From the NCBI GenBank assembly GCA_963805085.1, contig CAWDTA010000002.1, positions 1,856,001 through 1,920,000 on the forward strand: a stretch of DNA of 64,000 bases. The letters are read 5' to 3'. Shown one piece after another: positions 1 to 42,848 of the stretch (within the stretch, counting starts at the first letter, position 1; each line of letters starts with the position of its first letter). The notes below the pieces were generated by a model. The model did not search any database. It was not told the origin of the DNA and saw only the letters and a program-made list of their open reading frames with translations. Source of the DNA: an uncultured Veillonellaceae bacterium (GTDB taxonomy: Bacteria > Bacillota > Negativicutes > JARBTT01). Position numbers and translations under genes: made by a program.

Positions 1-3000
1 AAATATTAGTCGTAGATTCCAAAGATGTTGATGCTATGTATATGATGGCGGCGGCTTATTTGAAGCTCGAAGAGTATGACCATGCAATTCAGTATGCAAA
101 TTTAAAGCTTGCTACGAATGAACGATATCATTTGGAAACATATCTTATTTTAGCTTATGCGTATGCTGGGCTTTTTGACTATGAAGCCGCAATTGATAGC
201 CTGAAATATTTACTAGGTGTGATTGACATACGCAATGATCATAATGATCAAACACAACGTAATGACTTTATAGGCATGGTTCATCAAACATTAGCAAGTT
301 ATTATATGAATGTTGGTAATGTTTCAGATGCTAGAGCAGCTTATTTAAATGCGAGTAAGGTAAAGACAAATCAAATAGAAATTATTAATAATTTTAGCTC
401 ATATTTATTATGCTTACATTATGATTTATTGTTATCCGATGAATTTATTTTTGAGGAACATAAAAGATTCCAACAGTTTTTTAAGCAGGTTGTTCCTTAT
501 CAGCATAATGAAGTAAAACAAAAGGCGAAAATTAAGATTGGGTATATTTCCCCTGATTTTCGCCAACATGTCATGTTATCTTTTTATTATCAACTATTAG
601 CGTGCTATGATAAACAGAAGTTTCATATTACTTGTTATTCTTTAGGCGATACGGATGTTTATACAGAAGAGCTTAAGGCAATGGTAGATTGCTGGCGCGA
701 TGTTCAGGGGAAGGAATATCATGAGATTGCAAAAATAATTTATGAAGATCATATTGATATTTTAGTTGATTTAGCGGGGCATTCTGTAAATAGTGGATTG
801 GCGGTTTTGGCTTATAAACCCGCACCAATTCAGGTGTCAGGGCTTGGTTATTTTAATACAACGGGGCTGAATACGGTAGATTATTTTCTTACCGATGCAT
901 ATGTCGATCCAGTGGGGCAGCATGATACTTTATTTACCGAAAAATTAATGCGTTTGCCACATAGTCATTTTTGTTATAAAGGTCGCGAGGATTTAGCTGA
1001 GTGCAAAAATGCACCTTGTATAATAAAGGGGTTTGCTACTTTTTGCAGTTTTAATCGTATTGCAAAAATCACCAATGAGATATTAGTAGTTTGGCAAAAA
1101 ATTTTAGTGCAGGTACAAGGAGCAAAGCTAGTCTTTAAAGATAAGCTATTTATTAGCGAATCGGCGAAGCGTAGCTTTAGAACTCGTTTAGAGTATCTTG
1201 CTTTTCCAATGGAGCAAGTAGAACTTCAAGAAGGTAGTCATCAGTATATGGATGACTATTTAGCGATGGATGTTGCGTTAGATACTTTTCCCTATCCAGG
1301 TGGTGGTACGACTTTTGATGCTTTATATATGGGCGTACCAGTGATAACTTTAGTCGGTGAGCGTCATGGTGCTAGGTTTGGCTATAGCATTTTGAAAAAT
1401 ATTGAATTGGATGAGTGTATCGCTACAACGACAGAAGAATATATAGAGAAGGCAGTAAGCTTAGCAAGGAACAAATCACGATTAAATGAATTGCATCAAA
1501 TTTTACGCGCACGCATGCTACAGTCCCCATTAATGGATGGAAAACAGTATGTGCTAGATGTGGAACATGCATATCAAGAAATGTGGCGTGAGTTTGACAA
1601 TCATAAGCAGGAAAAAGGTATGAATGGAATGGATGATGAAGTAGCAAAGGAAGTTATGGTATTAAATCAATATATCAAGGTAAAGCCTAAAGATAAAACT
1701 GCCTTAAAGCGTTTAGCAAATTTGTATATGATGAGTAAAGAATATGAAAAAGTGCTTGAAATTACTGATAAGATGATTCAGTTAGACAAGTTCGATTATG
1801 AAGCGATGTATATGGCTTCAGCGGCTCATTTATATTTAGACGAGGATGAACAGGCGTTTCATTTAGCGAAAAAAGTAACTGAAATTAAAAAAGATTATAT
1901 CGGTGCCTACATGGCAATGGCATTTTATTACGATAAGAAACTACTGTTGAAAGAAAATATTGACACGTTACAAAAAGTCGTTTCTTTGATTGAACGGAAA
2001 AATAAACACGGTTTACGAAGTATGGAATATGATCTTTTTAGTCAGGCTTGGCAACAATTGGGCGCATCTAACTTAGTATTAGGCAATATTGCTGAAACAA
2101 AGAAAGCTTACTTAAAAGCTAGTGAAATAAAAAATGATTTGATTGGAAAAAGTGCAGAATATAGTGGCTATTTGATGTGTACCAATTATGATTTGAGTAT
2201 GTCAGAACAAGAAATGCTTGCGGAACATAAAAAATTTAATGCGTTTTTTACTGAAATACCGCAATATCAGCATACTGATTTTCAGTCTAAAGTGAAGTTG
2301 CGGATTGGTTACATATCCCCTGATTTTTCCTATCATGCCGTAGTCTTTTATTGCTATCCGTTATTACGTAGTTATGATAAGGAAAAATTTGAAGTCGTTT
2401 GTTATCATAAAGGAAAATCGGATATGACGACAGAGCAGCTAAAATCTTTTGGCACAGTTTGGCGTGATATTAGTAGTTTAAGTGAAGCTGAAGCAGCACA
2501 ACTGATTTATGAAGATAAAATTGATATTTTAGTTGAACTGGCTGGTCATACTGCGCATAATTGTTTACCGATCTTAGCCTACAAACCAGCGTCAATTCAA
2601 CTATGTGGCATTGGTTATTTCAATACGACAGGGTTAGATACGGTTGATTATTTTTTAACGGATCATTATGTTGATCCAATTGGAAAAAATGATACTTATT
2701 TTACAGAGAAACTTTTACGTTTGCCAGCGACGCATTGGTGTTATACCAATCGCTTGGATGAACCAGACTGTCAAGAAACTGCATGTATAAGGAATCATTA
2801 TATTACGTTTTGTAGTTTTAATAATTTTGCAAAAACAACGGATCAAATGTTAATGCTATGGAAAGAAATTTTAACGCGAGTTCCAAATGCAAAATTAGTG
2901 CTCAAGAATAAAGTCTTTGAGAGTGAATATGGTTGTGAACAAATTTCTCATAGACTTTTACAAATGGGACTTAGAATGGAGCAGATAGAATTTAGAGCAT

Positions 3001-3761
3001 CGACCAGCAATCATATGCAAGAATATCTAGAGATGGATATTGCTTTGGATACCTATCCTTATGTAGGTGGTGCGACAACCTGTGAAGCTTTATATATGGG
3101 AGTGCCAGTAGTTACATTAGTAGGCAATCGTCATGGCGCACGTTTTGGCTATAGCATGCTGAAGAATATTGGATTTGAGGAAGGTATTGCTTATAGTGAG
3201 CAGCAGTATGTAGAAAAGGCAGTCGCCTTGGCAGAGGATATAGATCGTTTAAATGAACTGCATAAAGGATTATTACGCAAAAAAATGCTAGAATCATCAT
3301 TGATGGACGGAAATCGCTATATGGCTGCATTGGAGCAAGCTTATCAAAAAATCTGGAATGATTTCGTTGGTAATCATTCTAACGAGATTCCTAATAAAGA
3401 AAGAACGTTAGAAGATGCATTGTATCGTATTTCTAAAAATGATGAATTGGAACAAAATTTTGCTGTGGTAAGTGAATATACAGCAGAAAAGATAGACGAA
3501 GAAATAATGAAATTATATATTCATAATGATGAAAGAATTAATCTGTTGAATGCTATTGCGGTGAATTTTTATGAAAGCAATCAGTTCGATGATGTAATAC
3601 CTTTATTAACTACAGCACTTTCTTTGGATGCAGATTATGATATTACATTGAGCAATTTGGGCATTGTTTTATATAATTTTGGCGAGAAAGAAATAGCAAA
3701 AAAATATTTAAGTAAAATTAAGAATAAAGATGAAAACATTATAGCTTTGTTGAAAAAATAA
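1..3761 (+). CDS. TPR-repeat protein with two tandem GT41 (O-GlcNAc transferase/SPINDLY-like) catalytic modules; 5'-truncated by window edge
   Basis: Frame is open upstream of ATG 36 to the window edge. Two copies of IGYISPDF..H, DILV(D/E)LAGH, KPA.IQ..G.GY..TTGL..VDY, F.SFN..AK and DxALDTxPY.GG.TT..ALYMGVPV, separated by TPR-like helices. Confidence 0.9.
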   Translation, partial: ILVVDSKDVDAMYMMAAAYLKLEEYDHAIQYANLKLATNERYHLETYLILAYAYAGLFDYEAAIDSLKYLLGVIDIRNDHNDQTQRNDFIGMVHQTLASYYMNVGNVSDARAAYLNASKVKTNQIEIINNFSSYLLCLHYDLLLSDEFIFEEHKRFQQFFKQVVPYQHNEVKQKAKIKIGYISPDFRQHVMLSFYYQLLACYDKQKFHITCYSLGDTDVYTEELKAMVDCWRDVQGKEYHEIAKIIYEDHIDILVDLAGHSVNSGLAVLAYKPAPIQVSGLGYFNTTGLNTVDYFLTDAYVDPVGQHDTLFTEKLMRLPHSHFCYKGREDLAECKNAPCIIKGFATFCSFNRIAKITNEILVVWQKILVQVQGAKLVFKDKLFISESAKRSFRTRLEYLAFPMEQVELQEGSHQYMDDYLAMDVALDTFPYPGGGTTFDALYMGVPVITLVGERHGARFGYSILKNIELDECIATTTEEYIEKAVSLARNKSRLNELHQILRARMLQSPLMDGKQYVLDVEHAYQEMWREFDNHKQEKGMNGMDDEVAKEVMVLNQYIKVKPKDKTALKRLANLYMMSKEYEKVLEITDKMIQLDKFDYEAMYMASAAHLYLDEDEQAFHLAKKVTEIKKDYIGAYMAMAFYYDKKLLLKENIDTLQKVVSLIERKNKHGLRSMEYDLFSQAWQQLGASNLVLGNIAETKKAYLKASEIKNDLIGKSAEYSGYLMCTNYDLSMSEQEMLAEHKKFNAFFTEIPQYQHTDFQSKVKLRIGYISPDFSYHAVVFYCYPLLRSYDKEKFEVVCYHKGKSDMTTEQLKSFGTVWRDISSLSEAEAAQLIYEDKIDILVELAGHTAHNCLPILAYKPASIQLCGIGYFNTTGLDTVDYFLTDHYVDPIGKNDTYFTEKLLRLPATHWCYTNRLDEPDCQETACIRNHYITFCSFNNFAKTTDQMLMLWKEILTRVPNAKLVLKNKVFESEYGCEQISHRLLQMGLRMEQIEFRASTSNHMQEYLEMDIALDTYPYVGGATTCEALYMGVPVVTLVGNRHGARFGYSMLKNIGFEEGIAYSEQQYVEKAVALAEDIDRLNELHKGLLRKKMLESSLMDGNRYMAALEQAYQKIWNDFVGNHSNEIPNKERTLEDALYRISKNDELEQNFAVVSEYTAEKIDEEIMKLYIHNDERINLLNAIAVNFYESNQFDDVIPLLTTALSLDADYDITLSNLGIVLYNFGEKEIAKKYLSKIKNKDENIIALLKK

Positions 3762-3831
3762 TATTTAACTGATTGTATTTTAAATATTAAAAAATAGTAT
3801 ATTACTGTTGTATCATTTATAGAAATAGGAT

Positions 3832-7752: not shown

Positions 7753-8005
7753 GAGTTAAGAACTTATTGCTTAGGTCCGTGGTTGTAAGTCGATGCCAGT
7801 TGCAGGCGAAACGATCCACGTAAGGAATCCAAAAAGTGATTCTGATCATGGTGCAGCTTAGAGGTAAGTCCTGCCGGAGTCTTGTACATAATTGATGTCG
7901 ATATCCGAGAGAAGTAGTAGTGAGGGAATAATTTCTATTAGCGAAACTTCCAGCAGGCGAGTGTGGGGTCAAAAACCAGGTCGGCTGAGCATATTCTTAA
8001 AACTC
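7753..8005 (+). ncRNA. raiA-motif RNA
   Basis: Contains the conserved segments GTGGTTG(T)AAGTCGATGCCAG..GCAGGC.AAACGATCCACGTAAG, CATGGTGC.GCTTAGA.GTAAGTCCTGCCG and GCGAAACTTCCAGCAGGCGAGTGTGGGGTCAAA.ACCAGGTC. Closing stem tgcttag/ctgagca. Typical neighbourhood (zinc-ribbon gene, hpf/raiA downstream). Confidence 0.92.
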
Positions 8006-31860: not shown

Positions 31861-31957
31861 CCCGTTGAAAAGGATAAGCTTGCAGGAATGTATCTTAATG
31901 AAGGCCTATATACAGGGAAAAAAATTAATGATAAACGTTCCTAAGCTATATTAGTTT
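31861..31957 (+). promoter_or_regulatory. Island motif copy 1: bipartite promoter-like element plus leader hairpin
   Basis: CCCGTTGAAAA 31861, AATGTATCTTAA 31887, then tata-cagggaa...ttcctaagc-tata hairpin. Confidence 0.75.
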
Positions 31958-31992
31958 TCAAAAGTATTATCGTAAATTGAGGAGGAATTTAC

Positions 31993-32925
31993 ATGTCTAC
32001 ATATTATAAAGGAGCAGATTTGAGCTGGCTACCTGCGATGGAATCAAAAAAATATACTTTTAAAAACTCAAGCGGCACAACACAAGACGAAATGACGACG
32101 ATGAAAGAATTAGGAGTTAATGCAGTTAGATTGAGACTATGGGTTAATCCTTCAAGTGACGTCTACAGTGGTATGTGCAATGAAACTCAAGTAATTGGAA
32201 TGGCAAAACGAGCAAAAGCTATAGGTGCTGATATCATGCTAGATCTACATTATAGCGATACATGGGCAGATCCAGGAGCCCAGACAATACCAGCTGCTTG
32301 GTCAACTTGTACTACGATGTCTGCATTAGGGACGCAGGTGTACAATTATACTTATCAAGTGATGACTAATATGAAAAATGCCGGTGTAACGCCTACTTGG
32401 GTACAAATAGGCAATGAGATTAATTCAGGTTTAATATGGCCTCTCGGAAATACTTCAAATGGTTTCGCCAATGTTGCATGGCTAATTAACTCTGGTTATA
32501 ATGCTGTTAAAGCTGTAAGTAGCTCAACTAAATGCATCGTCCATTTAGCAAATGGCTATAATAATACTACTTTTAGATGGTTTTTTGATGGGCTGAAAGC
32601 AGCTGGTGGCAATTGGGATATTATAGGGATGTCACTTTATCCGACGGCAAGTAATTATACTACCTATAACAGCCAATGCTTAACGAATATGAAGGACATG
32701 CTATCTAGATATGATACAAATGTAGTGATTGCTGAAGCTGGGTTTGCCTATAATGATCCAACAACTGCTGCTAAATTTCTTGCACAGCTTAAAACTAATG
32801 TTAAAGCTGTAGGAGGTGTCGGAATATTCTATTGGGAACCTGAATGTTATAATTGGAACAGTTATGGTATGGGCGCAACAGATCCCTCGACTAAAAAACC
32901 AACAAGTGCTATGCCTGCATACTAA
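31993..32925 (+). CDS. GH53 endo-beta-1,4-galactanase, no signal peptide
   Basis: KGADLSW, RLRLWVNP, DLHYSDTWADPG.Q, QIGNEI (acid/base), IAEAG (nucleophile), YWEP; catalytic domain starts at about residue 4. Confidence 0.93.
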   Translation: MSTYYKGADLSWLPAMESKKYTFKNSSGTTQDEMTTMKELGVNAVRLRLWVNPSSDVYSGMCNETQVIGMAKRAKAIGADIMLDLHYSDTWADPGAQTIPAAWSTCTTMSALGTQVYNYTYQVMTNMKNAGVTPTWVQIGNEINSGLIWPLGNTSNGFANVAWLINSGYNAVKAVSSSTKCIVHLANGYNNTTFRWFFDGLKAAGGNWDIIGMSLYPTASNYTTYNSQCLTNMKDMLSRYDTNVVIAEAGFAYNDPTTAAKFLAQLKTNVKAVGGVGIFYWEPECYNWNSYGMGATDPSTKKPTSAMPAY

Positions 32926-33042
32926 GAAGTTCAATCTAAACATAATGTAATTTCTTGTAATTTAATAAAACTATATGCTTCTATTATTCTGAGGGCGTTA
33001 TGCCTTATTAGATAAGGTATATGTAGGCATATTGAAGCCATT

Positions 33043-33080
33043 AATCACTATGGAGTTACAGCTCTGTAGTGATTTTTTTC
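33043..33080 (+). terminator. Intrinsic terminator
   Basis: aatcactatggag-ttacag-ctctgtagtgatt followed by a T-run. Confidence 0.75.
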
Positions 33081-33136
33081 TTGTTAATGTTCATTATACA
33101 GGATGATTCAGATTAGGTGATCATTTTCTAGTTAAA

Positions 33137-33235
33137 CCCGTTTAAAAAAGAATATTAAATAAATGTATATAAGTAAAATCTAATATATAGGGAAAAAAAT
33201 AATGAAAAAAATAGTTCCTTAGCTATATTGGTTTT
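33137..33235 (+). promoter_or_regulatory. Island motif copy 2
   Basis: CCCGTTTAAAA 33137, AATGTATATAA 33162, hairpin aatata-tagggaa...ttccttagc-tatattgg. Confidence 0.8.
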
Positions 33236-33261
33236 TAGAAATTTAGAAGGGTTGTGTAAAA

Positions 33262-34263
33262 ATGTCTACTTATAATGTAACGACTTACTCAGATCTAAAA
33301 AGCAAGGTGGCAGCAGCAGGATCAGGAGATACAATTTATATTGGAGCTTCGATTACTTGTACTGCTCAAATCGTATTGAGTGGTAGTGGTATCACTCTAA
33401 CGGCAAAAAGCGGAGTAACCCCTGTTCTTGATTTTTCGGCTATATCCAGTATTAACTCAGGTTCAGCTGGTATTGGAATCTATGTAACAGGCAGTAATAA
33501 TACGATTAGTGGCCTTATCGTACAAAAAGCTGGTGATAATGGACTGAAAATTGAAGGTGCTAGTAATACGGTGCAAAACTGTATCTTCCGTTATAACGGA
33601 GATACAGGTCTACAGATATCCAAGTCTACAGCTAAAAAAAATACGATCAAGTATTGTGATTCCTATCGAAATTGTGATAAAGCAACGAGTGGTGGAAATG
33701 CGGACGGCTTTGCCTGTAAGTTGAGTGCTGGTGCAGGCAATTCATTTATTGGTTGCCGAGCTTTCCAAAATTCTGATGATGGTTGGGACAGTTATGATAT
33801 GAATAATGATGTTACATATACCGATTGTATTACTTGGCATAATGGAGACGCGAGTATAACTACTTATGCTGGTAATGGCAATGGTTTTAAACTTGGCTCT
33901 AAAGGTGCCACTGGAAAACGGACAATGACTCGCTGTATCGCGTGGGATACAAAATATAGCGGTAAAAAAGGATTTGATCAAAACAATGGGGTTGGAGTAG
34001 TAACATTAACCAACTGCCTGTCTTTTGACAATGTGATTGGCTATCAGCTGGATGATGCTACAAGTCTTACTATGACAAACTGTAGAGAGTTTAATTGCAC
34101 TTCCTCCGATTCTCTTCCTTCTGGTGTAACTGTTACGAAGATTACGGATACAGCTAAACAAGCTTCAATTCGTAGTGCAATTAAAACTGCGTGCAATAAA
34201 ATTTTATCCAATTGCGAAAATAATATCATTACTGGAGCAATCACTTTGAATATATGGAGCTAA
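33262..34263 (+). CDS. PL9-family pectate lyase (parallel beta-helix), no signal peptide
   Basis: AGDNG, N.DTGLQI, GNADGFACKL (catalytic Lys), NSDDGWD, GNGNGFKLG. Confidence 0.88.
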   Translation: MSTYNVTTYSDLKSKVAAAGSGDTIYIGASITCTAQIVLSGSGITLTAKSGVTPVLDFSAISSINSGSAGIGIYVTGSNNTISGLIVQKAGDNGLKIEGASNTVQNCIFRYNGDTGLQISKSTAKKNTIKYCDSYRNCDKATSGGNADGFACKLSAGAGNSFIGCRAFQNSDDGWDSYDMNNDVTYTDCITWHNGDASITTYAGNGNGFKLGSKGATGKRTMTRCIAWDTKYSGKKGFDQNNGVGVVTLTNCLSFDNVIGYQLDDATSLTMTNCREFNCTSSDSLPSGVTVTKITDTAKQASIRSAIKTACNKILSNCENNIITGAITLNIWS

Positions 34264-34332
34264 TAGCTAAAAATAGTTATTACAGGCGTTGCAAAAAGTT
34301 TTGGAAAAATAATTAGAAAATACTATGAGTTT

Positions 34333-34358
34333 GCCCCTAGCTTAGGCTAGGGGTTTTT
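34333..34358 (+). terminator. Intrinsic terminator
   Basis: gcccctagc-ttag-gctaggggt followed by a T-run. Confidence 0.8.
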
Positions 34359-34595
34359 AATTTTTATCAGGTTAATTTCAAACTTGAAAGCGTGTATGAA
34401 AAATAATGTATGTAAAAATTGCAATGAAAAATATGATACGGTATATATTTTGTCACAACAGAGATCTTTAAATAATCGGAAAGTAAAGGGGCGATTGTAT
34501 AGTTAAGATACGTTATGAAATATAGAAAAATTCACCTATATTAATCGTTAATTTACTTTTTTTAGTAGTAAAATTACCATTTTAGACAAGACATA

Positions 34596-34624
34596 TTGAA
34601 ATAATAGAAAATTGTAATTATAAT
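34596..34624 (+). promoter_or_regulatory. Possible sigma-A promoter upstream of the sigma-factor unit
   Basis: TTGAAA-17-TATAAT, but in very AT-rich DNA. Confidence 0.4.
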
Positions 34625-34760
34625 TAAATATAACTGGTAAAAATGTAAAAATATTCAATCAAATAAGACGTAAAATATGAAATTATCAAATAATTTTTAT
34701 ATTTGTACATTTTGAGAACAAATTGCATGGGGGTAATGAAAAAAAAGTAAAAGTAAAATT

Positions 34761-34790
34761 AGCTGCTTAATTTAGAGCGGCTTTTTGTTT
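34761..34790 (+). terminator. Terminator-like hairpin
   Basis: agctgct-taatttag-agcggct followed by a T-run. Confidence 0.55.
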
Positions 34791-34863
34791 TCTTTAGTAG
34801 CTGATGGCGAAATTAAGTTAGAGATAACGTCGAAAAAAATTTTTTTATATAATTGTGGGTTGA

Positions 34864-34953
34864 CCCGTTTAAAAAAGCATCTTTAAAAAATGTATATAAG
34901 TAGAAGCCAATATTTAACAGAATAAATTAAAAGTATTTTGTTATAGCGGCTTT
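34864..34953 (+). promoter_or_regulatory. Island motif copy 3
   Basis: CCCGTTTAAAA 34864, AATGTATATAA 34889, hairpin aagcc..taacagaata / tattttgtta..ggctt. Confidence 0.8.
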
Positions 34954-34986
34954 ACAAAAACATTAAAAATTTGGGAGGCGATTTAA

Positions 34987-35187
34987 ATGGTATACAATCA
35001 AGATTTATCTAGAAATAGTGGGGTGAATGGTAGAAAAGACTTGATCGTATCACAAGAAAACCAACTTATTTTTGTTAATAGTAAGAATATTTCTAAAAAT
35101 GTCAAATTTACGTGCGTTATTAAGAAAGCGTTTACTAATAGTATAAAAAATAATAGAAATGCAGAAAAATCATGGGTACAGTGTTAG
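34987..35187 (+). CDS. Small 66-aa ORF sharing RBS and N-terminus with the GH51 gene; overlaps the sigma start
   Basis: GGAGG RBS; ggaggcgattt(t)aaatg.. tacaatcaagatttatct is shared with 37253-37290 (MVYNQDLS vs MSYNQDLS). Confidence 0.5.
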   Translation: MVYNQDLSRNSGVNGRKDLIVSQENQLIFVNSKNISKNVKFTCVIKKAFTNSIKNNRNAEKSWVQC

Positions 35188-35678
35188 ATTTTGAACCACT
35201 AGTGCGTAAATACACTTGGAATAAATCAGAGGATGTAAGGGCGGAAGCCTGGTTAGCAGTAGTGGAGGCAACAAAATTATATGATTCTACGAAGGGAGTA
35301 CCATTTGCTGGTTATGTAAAAAGCAAAGTCAAATATTCAGTTTGGAATATGGTTAGGAAGCAGCAAAGGAAATGCCAGTATGAAGTGGCTATTGAGGGGG
35401 ATGGTGATAATGAAGAAAATAGTCTACTTGATACATTACAAAGCAGCACAAATGTTTCAGATGAGGTTGAGAAGAAGTTTTTGACTGAAGAATTACAAGC
35501 AGCTATTAATATGCTGCCAGAACGTCAGCGGATTGCTGTACTTAAAACTGTAGCTTGGAACTTTAGTCAAACAGAAACTGCAGCAGCATTGGGGGTAACG
35601 CCACAAGCAATATTTAATTTGCGCAATCGTGGGTTGGCCCGTTTAAAAAAAACGGCCTGTATGAATGTATATAATTAA
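35172..35678 (+). CDS. Small alternative sigma-70 factor (regions 2 and 4 only)
   Basis: FEPLVRKY, D..AEAWLAVVEA..LYD.TKGVPFAGYV (region 2); LPERQR..SQTETAAALGVTPQAI...RNRGLARLKK (region 4 HTH). Confidence 0.88.
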   Translation: MGTVLDFEPLVRKYTWNKSEDVRAEAWLAVVEATKLYDSTKGVPFAGYVKSKVKYSVWNMVRKQQRKCQYEVAIEGDGDNEENSLLDTLQSSTNVSDEVEKKFLTEELQAAINMLPERQRIAVLKTVAWNFSQTETAAALGVTPQAIFNLRNRGLARLKKTACMNVYN

Positions 35679-35730
35679 AGCCAATATACATAGAAAAATT
35701 TAATGAAAAGGTTCTGGACTATTGAAAGCA
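35638..35730 (+). promoter_or_regulatory. Island motif copy 4, inside the last codons of the sigma gene
   Basis: CCCGTTTAAAA 35638 (codons A-R-L-K), AATGTATATAA 35664 (N-V-Y-N), then aagccaatataca. Confidence 0.8.
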
Positions 35731-35824
35731 ATAAGAAAGGTGTATGTTGATGGGGAAACGATAAAGAGTTTCATATATATTAAAGTTTCTTTTTTTAATT
35801 AATAAAGTAATAGGAGTGTTGATT

Positions 35825-37009
35825 ATGAGTGATTTATACGTATCTAATTCAGGAAGTGCCAGTAATGCAGGTACTGTGAGTAGCCCGCTTACTCTTGTTG
35901 CGGCAATTACAAAGGTTGCTGCAGGCGGGACAATTTACATGATGTCAGGAACATATAGTTATGCTACTCAAATAACGATTGAGCGTGGCAATAATGGAAC
36001 TTCAGGTAGTTACAAAAGCATTAAGCCATACAACTCTGGAACCGTAATCTTAGACTTTTCTTCCCAGACGTATGGAGATCCTTCGAGTGTAAGTAATCCT
36101 AGAGGACTGCAGATCAACGGCAATTACTGGCATATAAAAGGACTTGCTGTAAAAGGCGCTGCTGACAATGGTATTTTTATCGGAGGGAGCTATAACAAAA
36201 TAGAACTTTGTGAAACTTATGCGAATAGAGACTCAGGCTTGCAGTTAGGAAGATATATCTCCACCGCCGCAGAAAGTGAATGGCCAGCATATAACGAAAT
36301 CCTGAATTGTACTTCTCATGATAATTCTGACCCTGATAATGGCGAGGATGCGGATGGTTTTGCTTGCAAGCTGACTACAGGTGAAGGCAACGTATTTAGC
36401 GGTTGCATTTCCTATAATAATGTTGATGACGGTTGGGATCTATATACAAAATCTGCCACTGGTGCTATTGGCGTTGTAACTATAAAAGACTGTGTAGCCT
36501 ATAATAACGGTGTAACTTCTAGTGGGACAAGTACGGCAAACAGTGATGGTAATGGATTTAAATTAGGTGGTGACAAAGTAGCTGTTAACCATATAGTGAA
36601 AAATTGTATAGCCTTCAATAACAAAAAGCATGGATTTACCTATAATAGTAACCCAGGCTCTATCACGTTAACAAATTGTACAAGCTATAACAACGGAACT
36701 ACATCAGGAAGCAATTTTTCTTTTGATAAAGGTATGCATGTATTTACTAATTTATTATCTTATAAAGCTAGTTCAAGTGATAAGACAAGCGGTACTGATG
36801 TAAATAGTTCAAATGTATGGTGGAAAAATTCAAAAACTACAAATGCAAATGGGTTAGCTTGTAATGATGCAGACTTTGTTAGCCTTACTCCAGCCGTAAC
36901 TAGAAATACGGATGGTTCCATTAATTTAGGAAACTTTTTAAAACTTGCTGCTGGTAGTGACCTGATTGGTGCAGGCACTCCAAGTGGCACTAATATTGGA
37001 GCTAGATAG
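35825..37009 (+). CDS. PL9-family pectate lyase, no signal peptide
   Basis: LYVS..GS..NAGT..SP, AADNG, NRDSGLQL, EDADGFACKL, NVDDGWD, DGNGFKLGG. Confidence 0.92.
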   Translation: MSDLYVSNSGSASNAGTVSSPLTLVAAITKVAAGGTIYMMSGTYSYATQITIERGNNGTSGSYKSIKPYNSGTVILDFSSQTYGDPSSVSNPRGLQINGNYWHIKGLAVKGAADNGIFIGGSYNKIELCETYANRDSGLQLGRYISTAAESEWPAYNEILNCTSHDNSDPDNGEDADGFACKLTTGEGNVFSGCISYNNVDDGWDLYTKSATGAIGVVTIKDCVAYNNGVTSSGTSTANSDGNGFKLGGDKVAVNHIVKNCIAFNNKKHGFTYNSNPGSITLTNCTSYNNGTTSGSNFSFDKGMHVFTNLLSYKASSSDKTSGTDVNSSNVWWKNSKTTNANGLACNDADFVSLTPAVTRNTDGSINLGNFLKLAAGSDLIGAGTPSGTNIGAR

Positions 37010-37055
37010 ATTTATATAATTTGGATGGTATGTCAAATTCGATTTTTCTCAACAT

Positions 37056-37086
37056 ACCCGGTATCTTAGGACGCCGGGTTTTATTT
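37056..37086 (+). terminator. Intrinsic terminator
   Basis: acccggtatc-ttag-gacgccgggt followed by a T-run. Confidence 0.75.
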
Positions 37087-37139
37087 TATATCTAGTTTAA
37101 TGACCAATTCGGGACAATACTTCGAATTTTTTATTTTTA

Positions 37140-37238
37140 CCCGTTTAAAAAAATTTTTTAAATCAATGTATATAAGTATAAGCCAATATACAAGGAAAAA
37201 ACACAATTTGATAAGAGTTCCTTAGCTATATTGGCTTT
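37140..37238 (+). promoter_or_regulatory. Island motif copy 5
   Basis: CCCGTTTAAAA 37140, AATGTATATAA 37165, perfect aagccaatata/tatattggctt stem (37180-37237) with inner aaggaa/ttcctt. Confidence 0.82.
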
Positions 37239-37266
37239 TATTAGGAATTTCTGGAGGCGATTTTAA

Positions 37267-39777
37267 ATGTCTTACAATCAAGATTTATCTGCAGATAAGA
37301 CAGATATTAATAATTGTAAAAACGGGGTTGCTTTGGAACTGGAAGTAAATACAGATCAGATAGGTATAAACATTAGTCCTGATCTTTATGGAATATTTTT
37401 TGAAGATATAAATCATGCTGCAGATGGTGGCTTATATGCAGAATTAATTCAAAATCGCTCTTTTGAGGATGATTCAACAACACCTAAACATTGGTCATTA
37501 GTAAAGACAGGAACAGCTGAAGGTACAATGACTCTTGATGATACTGTTCTTTTAAACAGCGTTCAGTCGAGATCGTTACGTCTTGATGTAACAACGGCAG
37601 ACCCAGCTGGAAGCATTGGTATAGCAAACGAAGGTTATTGGGGGATAAGCGTAAAAAAAGGAATACAATATAATTTATCATTCTTTGCTAAAGCTAGCAG
37701 TGATTTTTCAGGAGATATAACAGCTAGTCTCCAAAGCGCTGCTGGACAAACTGTTTATGGACAGATAGTACTATCAAGTATAGCTACAGAGTGGGAAAAG
37801 TATATTGTGACAATTACTTCAAACGGAACTGACCAAAATGCAGTATTTGTATTATCAATAAATACAGTAGGCTCAGTATGGTTTGATGTGGTCTCGCTGT
37901 TTCCGCCGACGTTTAATAATAGACCTAATGGACTAAGAGAAGATCTAGTAAACATGATAAAAGAGATGAAGCCTAGGTTTATGAGATTTCCAGGAGGATG
38001 CTTTGTTGAAGGAGCGGCTATGGCAACTGCGTTCAGGTGGAAAACTACGATTGGAAAGATAGAAGAAAGAGCAGGACATCAAAATCTTTGGGGTTACCAT
38101 ACAACTGATGGTATGGGATATCATGAATTCCTGCAACTTTCTGAAGACCTTGGTGCAGAACCATTGTATGTTATCAATATTGGGATAGCCCACAAAGATA
38201 ACATCCCGCTGGAGGAACTTGATTCTTGGGTACAAGAGGCTCTTGATGCTATAGAGTATGCAAATGGGGATATTACAACAACATATGGTGCGATGAGAGC
38301 AGCCAATGGTCATTATGAATCTTTTAATTTAAAATATATTGAAATCGGTAATGAAAATAATCAACATAGCACCACGGATAACAGAAGTAATCTTTATGGT
38401 GACAGATATATCAAGTTTTATAATGCGATAAAGAATAAGTATCCCGAAATATATACGATAGGCAATGTTGAAGCATGGGGGACAGATACACCTTCATGGC
38501 AATATTCACATCCAGTGGAATTGGTTGACGAGCACTATTATAGAGGGACACAATGGTTTATCAATAAGGCTAATAAGTATGACAGTTATGATAGAAACAG
38601 TCATAATATTTATGTAGGAGAATATGCGGTTACTACGACTCTTGACTGTGGAAAAGGAAATTTAAATGCAGCTATAGGGGAAGCCGCTTTCATGACAGGA
38701 CTTGAAAAAAATTCTGATATTGTAAAAATGGCTTCTTATGCACCATTATTGGTTAATACAAATGATCGAGCGTGGAATCCGGATGCAATTGTTTACAATG
38801 CTTACGATGTGTATGGAACACCATCTTATTATGTACAAAAAATGTTTGCCAACAACCTAGGTAGTTTTATTTTACCTACAACGTTAAAATTTTTGAATAG
38901 TACTACGGATACTACTTCTACTTCGGCTAGGCAGATTGTGGGACAAGTAGGAATTGGCAGCTGGGATACAGCAGTGAGTTATAATAATGTTTCAGTTACG
39001 AAAAATAGTGATAGCAGTATTTTCCTAACGAATGATTTTTCAGAAGATGCACCTAACTGGAAGGTGATAAGTGGTACTTGGAGTCTAACGTATAATCAAA
39101 CCAATACTACTGTAGAGCCTGGAATGATAGTTGCTGGAAGTAGTGATTGGAATAATTACACACTGGAGCTAACAGCGAAGAAGATGAGTGGCAGCGAAGG
39201 AATGATGATTTACTTTGGATTTTTAGATGGTGATAATTCTTATGATTTAAATCTTGGCGGGTGGAAAAATACTCTGCATGCTATACAAAAAAATGATAAT
39301 GGAAGCACATCATTACTTGCTAGTCAAGCCGGATCGATTAAAGCAGGTCAAAGTTATAAAATTAAGGTAGTCGTTTCTGGAACAAATATTAAGGCTTATT
39401 TGGATGACCAATTATTATTTGATGTAACTGATTCATCGCCATTAAAACCAGCTACTCGTGATCCATTATATTTTGTCACAAGTAAGGATACTGAGTCAGG
39501 AGATATTATCATGAAAGTAGTAAATCCTAACGACAAAGATGGTAAGGCTGTGATAAGAATTAACGGAAAAGATAAAATTTTAGGCGGGACAGCAAGCGTG
39601 CTCACTTCAAATAATATTGCCGATGAAAATTCATTTGCAAACCCATTAAAAGTAGTTCCTGTTGACAGTCAATTTGTAAGTTGTGGTGAATCAAACCAAT
39701 TTAACTATATATTTTCTAAGAATTCGATAACTGTATTAAGATTAGAAACGCATGGAAATCATATAATAATTAAATAA
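37267..39777 (+). CDS. GH51 alpha-L-arabinofuranosidase with inserted beta-sandwich domain, no signal peptide
   Basis: LYGIFFEDINHAADGGLYAEL..NRSF, RFPGGC, IGNEN, VDEHYY, YVGEY, MASYAPL. Confidence 0.93.
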   Translation: MSYNQDLSADKTDINNCKNGVALELEVNTDQIGINISPDLYGIFFEDINHAADGGLYAELIQNRSFEDDSTTPKHWSLVKTGTAEGTMTLDDTVLLNSVQSRSLRLDVTTADPAGSIGIANEGYWGISVKKGIQYNLSFFAKASSDFSGDITASLQSAAGQTVYGQIVLSSIATEWEKYIVTITSNGTDQNAVFVLSINTVGSVWFDVVSLFPPTFNNRPNGLREDLVNMIKEMKPRFMRFPGGCFVEGAAMATAFRWKTTIGKIEERAGHQNLWGYHTTDGMGYHEFLQLSEDLGAEPLYVINIGIAHKDNIPLEELDSWVQEALDAIEYANGDITTTYGAMRAANGHYESFNLKYIEIGNENNQHSTTDNRSNLYGDRYIKFYNAIKNKYPEIYTIGNVEAWGTDTPSWQYSHPVELVDEHYYRGTQWFINKANKYDSYDRNSHNIYVGEYAVTTTLDCGKGNLNAAIGEAAFMTGLEKNSDIVKMASYAPLLVNTNDRAWNPDAIVYNAYDVYGTPSYYVQKMFANNLGSFILPTTLKFLNSTTDTTSTSARQIVGQVGIGSWDTAVSYNNVSVTKNSDSSIFLTNDFSEDAPNWKVISGTWSLTYNQTNTTVEPGMIVAGSSDWNNYTLELTAKKMSGSEGMMIYFGFLDGDNSYDLNLGGWKNTLHAIQKNDNGSTSLLASQAGSIKAGQSYKIKVVVSGTNIKAYLDDQLLFDVTDSSPLKPATRDPLYFVTSKDTESGDIIMKVVNPNDKDGKAVIRINGKDKILGGTASVLTSNNIADENSFANPLKVVPVDSQFVSCGESNQFNYIFSKNSITVLRLETHGNHIIIK

Positions 39778-42005: not shown

Positions 42006-42848
<843 letters not shown>

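Follow-up and report, generated by a model that had tools for sequence, protein, structure and literature searches.

The stretch of DNA analysed here, referred to as the window, comprises 64,000 nucleotides (C2:1856001-1920000) of a 4.2-Mb genome (G000) whose assembly is 83% complete. With Sporomusa and Pelosinus records as its named relatives, the genome is assigned to the class Negativicutes. A small sigma factor gene lies in the window within a cluster of genes for carbohydrate-active enzymes, and several features in and around this gene resemble promoters and leader hairpins. These features are summarized in Table 1.

The sigma protein is matched by Pfam Sigma70_r4_2 at residues 106-158, ending at L158, and by Sigma70_r2 at residues 19-66 with 23 bits, just below the cut-off of 24; TIGR02937 exceeds its cut-off. 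Its AlphaFold model consists of two helical domains and a short linker, which is the layout of group-4 (ECF-like) sigma factors, with one helix running from residue 144 to 167 and a pLDDT of 63 in the last block. The protein represents a short mobile subtype without about 25 N-terminal residues of the chromosomal orthologue. The latter is found once per genome and precedes DUF1659, DUF2922 and YvrJ genes; in this genome, a paralogue of the chromosomal type is located at C2:1808953, has a near-identical or similar recognition helix and carries no tail motif. No anti-sigma factor gene adjoins either form, the neighbours of the window's gene being PL9 genes and a 66-codon ORF. No clear ribosome site was seen in the sequence at the start of the sigma gene, and the 66-codon ORF may couple its translation. 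The length of this ORF, not its sequence, is conserved in two other genomes (G001 and G098); it is fused in frame to the sigma factor in protein P0005, and its N-terminus is like that of the GH51 gene. Elsewhere in the genome, at C5:700851-701411, a SigK-like ORF stops after region 2, as if split by an excisable element.

No terminator was found between the sigma gene and the PL9 gene in the terminator scan. An RNA contig from a 94%-identical relative spans about 34911-37064 and thus both genes, which is weak evidence as contigs show neither starts nor single transcripts; it stems from one study in which nif and other neighbouring genes are covered too, so no specific expression is shown. A nitrogenase cluster directly follows the enzyme cluster (39922-63261; nifH at 42012, two PII genes, nifD). 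The GH53, PL9 and GH51 proteins (31993-39777) have no obvious signal peptide by eye, which would fit release by holin-like genes of the regulon described below.

Table 1. Positions of genes, predicted regulatory elements and hairpins at the sigma gene locus, counted within the window.
Feature	Position	Strand	Basis
Degenerate promoter-hairpin copy before GH53 gene (31993-32925)	31864..31960	+	pattern, Pfam
Other terminator-like hairpins in window	33043-33074 and 34333-34354		terminator scan
Promoter-hairpin copy before first PL9-like gene (33262-34263)	33140..33236	+	pattern, Pfam, folding
Terminator-like hairpin insulating upstream copy	34761..34782	+	terminator scan
Upstream predicted promoter (-35 at 34867) and hairpin copy, after fossil of sigma codons 149-156	34846..34954	+	pattern, folding
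66-codon upstream ORF, strong ribosome site, overlapping sigma start out of frame	34987..35187	+	ORF call
Sigma-70 family gene, regions 2 and 4 only, 168 aa	35172..35678	+	ORF call, Pfam
Predicted -35 box GTTTAAAA, dual-coded with R157-L158-K159	35641..35648	+	sequence, codon comparison
Predicted -10 box GAATGTATATA, i.e. GAATGTAT(ATA), codons M164-Y167	35663..35673	+	sequence, alignment
Predicted transcription start, at or just before stop codon	35674..35678	+	box geometry, inferred
Decayed family leader hairpin, 5' arm AGCCAATATAC	35679..35729	+	folding, alignment
Cargo gene, PL9-like pectate lyase (beta helix), likelier start ATG 35825	35816..37009	+	ORF, Pfam
Promoter-hairpin copy before GH51 arabinofuranosidase gene (37267-39777)	37143..37239	+	pattern, Pfam, folding

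Codon constraint in the sigma gene tail

The sigma gene ends in GCC CGT TTA AAA AAA ACG GCC TGT ATG AAT GTA TAT AAT TAA, encoding A156 R L K K T A C M N V Y N and stop, i.e. 14 codons with the stop included. The original prediction placed both boxes of a promoter inside these last 14 codons, and the sequence and ORF confirm this. It also assigned both boxes to region-4 codons, which holds for the -35 box, situated in the region-4 helix, but not for the -10 box, whose residues 164-167 lie beyond the Pfam match; among homologues, the C-terminal stretch holding it shows changes of frame or early stop codons. With regard to the idea that the DNA of the final helix is itself the recognised site, the R-L-K codons end the recognition helix, as judged by alignment to the RpoD of this genome. 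By the same alignment, these three residues lie beyond the base-reading positions of the helix.

Taken alone, the overlap in the window is suggestive only: recoding of the peptide at this AT-rich codon usage gives both boxes in 2.2% of cases, and 2 of 3194 long ORFs in this genome end in the motif at one mismatch per box. A two-mismatch look-alike at about 3748-3780, at the end of a 1241-aa ORF (36-3761), is the only other such case among these long ORFs and is probably due to chance. A comparison restricted to the three closest genes yields no information from synonymous conservation.

Homologous tails can be compared more widely. From 301 genomes of the class, 75 tails were collected, with 3 further partial hits excluded; three tails with frame errors (L053, L060 and L067; the first reads AGT TTA AAA) were dropped, and the remaining 72 were classed solely by the position of the -10 box, with L016 and L023, whose boxes were spurious, reassigned from the displaced to the no-box class. 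In the coupled class, defined by a distance of 22-23 nt between the Arg codon and the -10 box, the R-L-K codons read GTTTAAA in 42/42 genes. GTTTAAA is found at these codons in 0/15 genes whose -10 box is displaced past the gene end and in 1/15 genes with no box. In 12 of the 15 displaced genes, a -35 box has been formed anew, again at a distance of 21 nt. The third-position GC content (GC3) of the coupled genes ranges from 0.26 to 0.74, and background use is 0.20 for both CGT and TTA. Adjacent codons vary freely in the coupled genes, with TTA used for Leu155 in 9/30 and CGT for Arg153 in 12/37. At least four separate displacements of the -10 box are forced by a tree that was made by quick search with the tail columns included and L063 left out, and that contains many closely related rows.

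Most genes read the -10 box as G-M-Y or R-M-Y, the window's gene reads it as N-V-Y via a one-base insertion, and in 5 of the 42 coupled genes it falls behind the stop codon. Because the -10 box survives such frame changes and earlier stops, the constraint on the sigma tail acts on DNA. Excess synonymous conservation in the last codons of homologous sigma genes, which was to be expected under the original prediction, is therefore present in the form of the 42/42 versus 0/15 difference at R-L-K.

Motif copies, mobile cassettes and the leader hairpin

The motif consists of two boxes with fixed spacing, a free spacer, a single orientation and no palindrome. The pattern CCGTTTAAAA-N12-18-ATGTATATA has 4 matches in the window (33138, 34865, 35639 and 37141) versus 0.00 in 100 shuffles, and a degenerate fifth copy is found at 31864. 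The genes preceded by the motif in the window are those for GH53, PL9, the sigma factor itself, the second PL9 and GH51. A weight matrix trained solely on 30 motif copies from other genomes identifies 20 distinct sites in this genome versus 1 in the reversed control, with a score of 27.6 bits for the sigma-tail copy. Genes for GH26, GH43 and GH48 enzymes, a papain-like protease, and tail-fibre, collar and fn3 proteins are among those behind the copies in the genome (Pfam was run on the 20 proteins downstream of motif copies, 7 of which are without a family). A consensus scan for standard sigma-70 promoters gives 40 sites versus 37.0 expected, none of them at the tail. Three leaders in this genome (L219, L220 and L221; C2:341494, C5:37504 and C5:45147), located before genes for GH30 and GH62, retain the -10 box and the beginning of the hairpin; where the -35 box would be, they have a T-rich run.

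Both boxes of the window's tail copy are exact consensus, and their distance, counted from the start of the -35 box, is 22 nt versus 21 in 42/46 copies, so that the spacer is one base too long. This longer tail is common to G001, the organism of the RNA contig and 6 protein clusters ending in N-V/I-Y-N, and the ORF is intact in all of these sequences.

A quick tree places the window's short-subtype gene together with copies that come from two further families, separate from the chromosomal genes of these families. Short copies are located behind endolysin genes in prophage-like regions of three genomes (G034, G044 and G220) and, in G001 and G098, inside PL9 clusters; behind each copy come the tail promoter motif, the hairpin and a cargo gene (LamG, fn3 or PL9). 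Several of the short sigma copies are broken while the tail still stands. The copy at 34867 matches sigma codons 149-156 at 16/24 bases, where the 99.9th percentile of the background is 13, and its counterpart in G098 reads R-N-H-G-L-I-R-L-K-K; by this resemblance, it is identified as a duplicated sigma tail. A motif copy is likewise present upstream of the sigma gene in G001 and G098, and the one at 34867 is predicted to make the sigma gene autoregulated. The motif was not seen upstream of those chromosomal orthologues that were examined, and no sigma-tail remnant was seen at most other free motif copies. Among 20 pattern matches in viral contigs, the full element is found in 4 (L147, L149, L157 and L162), a fifth (L163) places the predicted promoter ahead of a holin-like gene, and the remainder look like chance. 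No close relatives of the sigma protein were found in the viral contigs, and phage and plasmid collections gave distant sigma factors only. The original suggestion of a portable sigma-plus-promoter cassette is supported by mobile units that precede different cargo genes and by promoter copies that are fossils of sigma tails.

A leader hairpin was also predicted to begin at the stop codon. Its 5' arm does start at 35679, right after the stop, but the window's copy folds no better than shuffles (z +0.5) and is the weakest among 45 copies. The 3' arm is 10 nt shorter in the window, and the RNA contig of the relative has 10 extra bases after 35714. Over the 45 copies, 85% of cells are paired versus at most 48% when the alignment is slid; 4 of 49 leaders were excluded from this alignment, and the stem was obtained with RIBOSUM settings, the default fold giving no structure. 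Covariation is modest and mostly G-U, with 15/37 two-sided changes from one poorly aligned pair. The hairpin is present in the mobile form and absent from the DUF1659 operons. It has no Rfam match at the gathering score, the sole match in the window being a raiA RNA motif at 7766-7993 (197 bits). Its role might be 5' protection or control by the DUF1659 pair, which is a guess.

Predicted transcription start, proposed reader of the motif and rival explanations

The DUF1659 operon provides a second setting in which the motif can be examined. In this genome, the operon (C2:122180) is 1.7 Mb from either sigma gene and still has the motif. In the available part of a dRNA-seq study of Sporomusa sphaeroides KIAC, a primary start at 1924493 is reported for DUF1659 in both conditions, is assigned to none of the SigA, H, F, E, K and L motifs, and marks the beginning of a unit of 726 nt with DUF1659, DUF2922 and YvrJ, immediately downstream of the sigma gene KIAC18_001900 (PMC12456013). 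This start was placed approximately; going by the most compact of 7 Sporomusa-type records, its leader would be at most about 25 nt if KIAC is equally compact, and the position fits a -10 role of the box. In all 7 of these records, the box begins 30-31 nt ahead of the start codon. Expression of DUF1659, DUF2922 and YvrJ in KIAC follows the order methanol > CO2 > betaine > formate in the data available, as does the adjacent sigma gene, a correlation that comes from one test with 4 conditions and low sigma counts and that could be raised artificially by target reads extending into the end of the sigma gene. Of the 12 further sigma genes in the available rows, which do not include SigF and SigK, none shares this order, and the ranks of SigE, G, H, FliA and RpoD differ from those of the operon.

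The strict motif pattern is found in 51/62 genomes with the sigma family versus 9/239 without it, a comparison that is partly circular, the motif lying inside the sigma gene, and in which kin genomes are not independent. It is present in 2 of the 20 sporulators without the family. Within the phylum, DUF1659 occurs in 208/401 genomes, and outside the class a sigma gene of such type is upstream in only 10/70 DUF1659 loci, which counts against the proposal made below. In its favour, six of these loci, all from one lineage, combine another recognition helix with another motif across the gene end.

Based on these comparisons, the tail motif is likely a promoter that is read by this sigma family and starts a transcript at the stop codon. 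The tail is dual-coding DNA, in which the R-L-K codons and those that follow spell GTTTAAAA-N13/14-GAATGTAT. For the chromosomal form, which occurs across the class, this transcript would carry DUF1659, DUF2922 and YvrJ. The shorter mobile form has the leader hairpin in addition and travels in prophage lysis regions and carbohydrate-enzyme clusters, where any gene behind the tail would enter the regulon. Decay of the sigma part could then leave the tail promoter in place, with the chromosomal copy serving it in trans. Reading of the motif by the sigma family, which we infer with reasonable confidence, is better supported than reading by the window's own protein, because the paralogue at C2:1808953 has a similar helix and because two genomes (G004 and G019) have 9 and 2 motif copies with only the chromosomal sigma type present. 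More tentatively, and at somewhat short of an even chance, the findings describe a hitherto undescribed family with its promoter consensus in its own recognition-helix codons; phages and recombination would move the gene, or the tail by itself, as a plug-in switch, which in this lineage would have produced a regulon of about twenty genes (tail-fibre and lysis genes and a set of plant-cell-wall enzymes), with the conserved hairpin as a second, post-transcriptional control.

Several rival explanations can be weighed against this proposal. The tail copy of the window could be a fading remnant, with most PL9 transcripts arising by read-through from 34867 and with the chromosomal paralogue, rather than the short sigma factor, as the reader. 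This possibility is on the unlikely side and is compatible with the proposal at the level of the family. The longer spacer and poorly folding hairpin of the window, the lack of a terminator before PL9, the single RNA contig across both genes (weak as noted), the copies kept in G004 and G019 with the chromosomal type alone and the broken short genes are all in its favour, whereas the exact consensus of both boxes and the sharing of the longer tail, always with an intact ORF, speak against decay. Synonymous recoding was originally expected to abolish PL9 transcription; a complete loss is unlikely because of the upstream copy at 34867, the missing terminator and the paralogue. Alternatively, R-L-K may simply end many sigma genes, with AT-rich codons spelling the box by chance. 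The recoding frequency in this genome leaves some room for this reading, but GTTTAAA is invariant even in coupled genes whose GC3 reaches 0.74 and is no longer kept once the box is displaced, and the weight matrix finds 20 genomic sites against 1. It is thus the comparative codon test, and not the codon choice of a single copy, that refutes chance at the level of the family, and this explanation retains a negligible probability.

Another holoenzyme (SigH, SigF, SigD, or SigA with an activator) might be served by the motif, the overlap reflecting a compact operon, although this is improbable. Similarity to SigF can be seen in GTTTA-N15 and to the SigD -10 box in GCCGATAT of the hairpin arm, and 54/62 genomes with the family also sporulate. 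The SigD/FliA consensus is TAAA-N15/16-GCCGATAW; exact TAAA with GCCGATAW is found in 0/45 copies, 14 having the -10 and 2 the TAAA. SigH promoters have AGGA at -35 and GAAT at -10 in the part of the source available (PMC12456013). The GAAT in the motif matches the latter, but the -35 box is GTTTAAAA, not AGGA, in a logo of 42 copies. Against other holoenzymes in general are the KIAC start, which in the available part of that study carries none of the six motifs named above, the discordant expression ranks in the same data, and 18/20 sporulators without the family that lack the pattern. Variants of the motif also persist in genomes where SigF/SigG were not found (G018, G038, G011 and G032); the absence of SigF, SigG and SpoIVA from G000 was not counted, as the assembly is incomplete and G001 has them. 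Very improbable is a role as an operator or RNA-level signal, e.g. for the DUF1659/DUF2922 proteins, with no promoter involved. SroA, a DUF1659 protein, acts on the stability of sigS mRNA according to the accessible part of one report (bioRxiv 10.1101/2022.10.19.512975), and a conserved hairpin follows in the mobile form. The two boxes at fixed spacing around a free spacer, the single orientation, the constant distance to the start codon in all 7 Sporomusa-type records, the reported primary start at the KIAC operon and the absence of a palindrome argue against such a signal.

Relation to known systems and significance

Parts of the proposed arrangement have precedents. The E. coli promoter rseA P3 is a sigma-E promoter inside rpoE, and thus a case of a group-4 sigma gene that holds its own target promoter in its coding region and drives the genes behind it, as the predicted boxes within the sigma coding region would do here. 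As described in the part of the source consulted, transcription from rseA P3 begins 228 nt upstream of rseA and supplies anti-sigma genes (PMC8595263). Here, in contrast, the recognition helix ends with the R-L-K codons that form the -35 box, transcription is predicted to begin at the stop codon, and a mobile unit precedes cargo genes of different kinds.

S. aureus SigS directly transcribes sroAB (DUF1659, DUF2922) in vitro, and the accessible text describes no overlap of promoter and sigS, no consensus and no start site (bioRxiv 10.1101/2022.10.19.512975). The likeness is one of target type, a small region-2-plus-4 sigma factor being tied to a DUF1659-DUF2922 operon; such an operon lies behind the motif both at the orthologous loci and at the unlinked C2:122180. 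No SigS model is among the 25 families listed. B. subtilis SigO-RsoA (YvrI-YvrHa), an alternative sigma factor, transcribes yvrJ and its own operon, its regulon being given as oxdC-yvrL and yvrJ in the parts of the sources seen (PMC8103513; PMC12370630). Unlike the present single chain of 168 aa with no adjacent anti-sigma factor, it is a two-subunit sigma factor with a membrane anti-sigma factor. Tn916 Sig7-8 is an element-borne, self-activating sigma factor that drives element genes, but its promoter is upstream of the gene and the sigma factor is split, as far as the available part of the report goes (bioRxiv 10.64898/2026.10.01.756105). A literature search gave no account of this sigma family, its motif or the overlap; related data on promoters may be present in primary papers on SigO and in bioRxiv supplements. 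Both a small sigma factor with DUF1659-DUF2922 targets and a sigma promoter lying within the gene for that sigma factor are already known, whereas the dual-coding test with natural release, the fossil tails and the enzyme regulon are new.

For a sigma factor that is widespread, unstudied and linked to DUF1659-DUF2922-YvrJ genes, these findings offer a predicted consensus promoter and a predicted regulon, and they provide a clean natural case of dual-coding DNA that is released once the two functions separate. Copying of the regulator's own 3' end could be a route for regulon growth, and the gene with its tail would act as a movable on-switch for the next gene, here for enzymes that digest plant walls. 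If the proposed explanation is true, every copy of the sigma gene is born with a working target behind it. The compact sigma-plus-promoter unit would also be a candidate for use as an orthogonal part for gene expression in acetogens and bacteria related to them.

DUF1659 loci beyond this family show other arrangements. In six loci outside the class (L103, L105, L111, L123, L128 and L131), a second sigma lineage with a different recognition helix is found 95 nt before DUF1659, and its motif, about GTCCAAA-N13-GTCAGTCTATA, overlaps the end of its gene. Ten others (L102, L104, L107, L109, L110, L112, L117, L122, L124 and L130) have no sigma gene upstream of DUF1659 and carry a GAAC-N4-GTTC-like site there, which echoes the DNA-damage induction of SigS-sroAB. 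We take this site to resemble the Firmicute LexA box.
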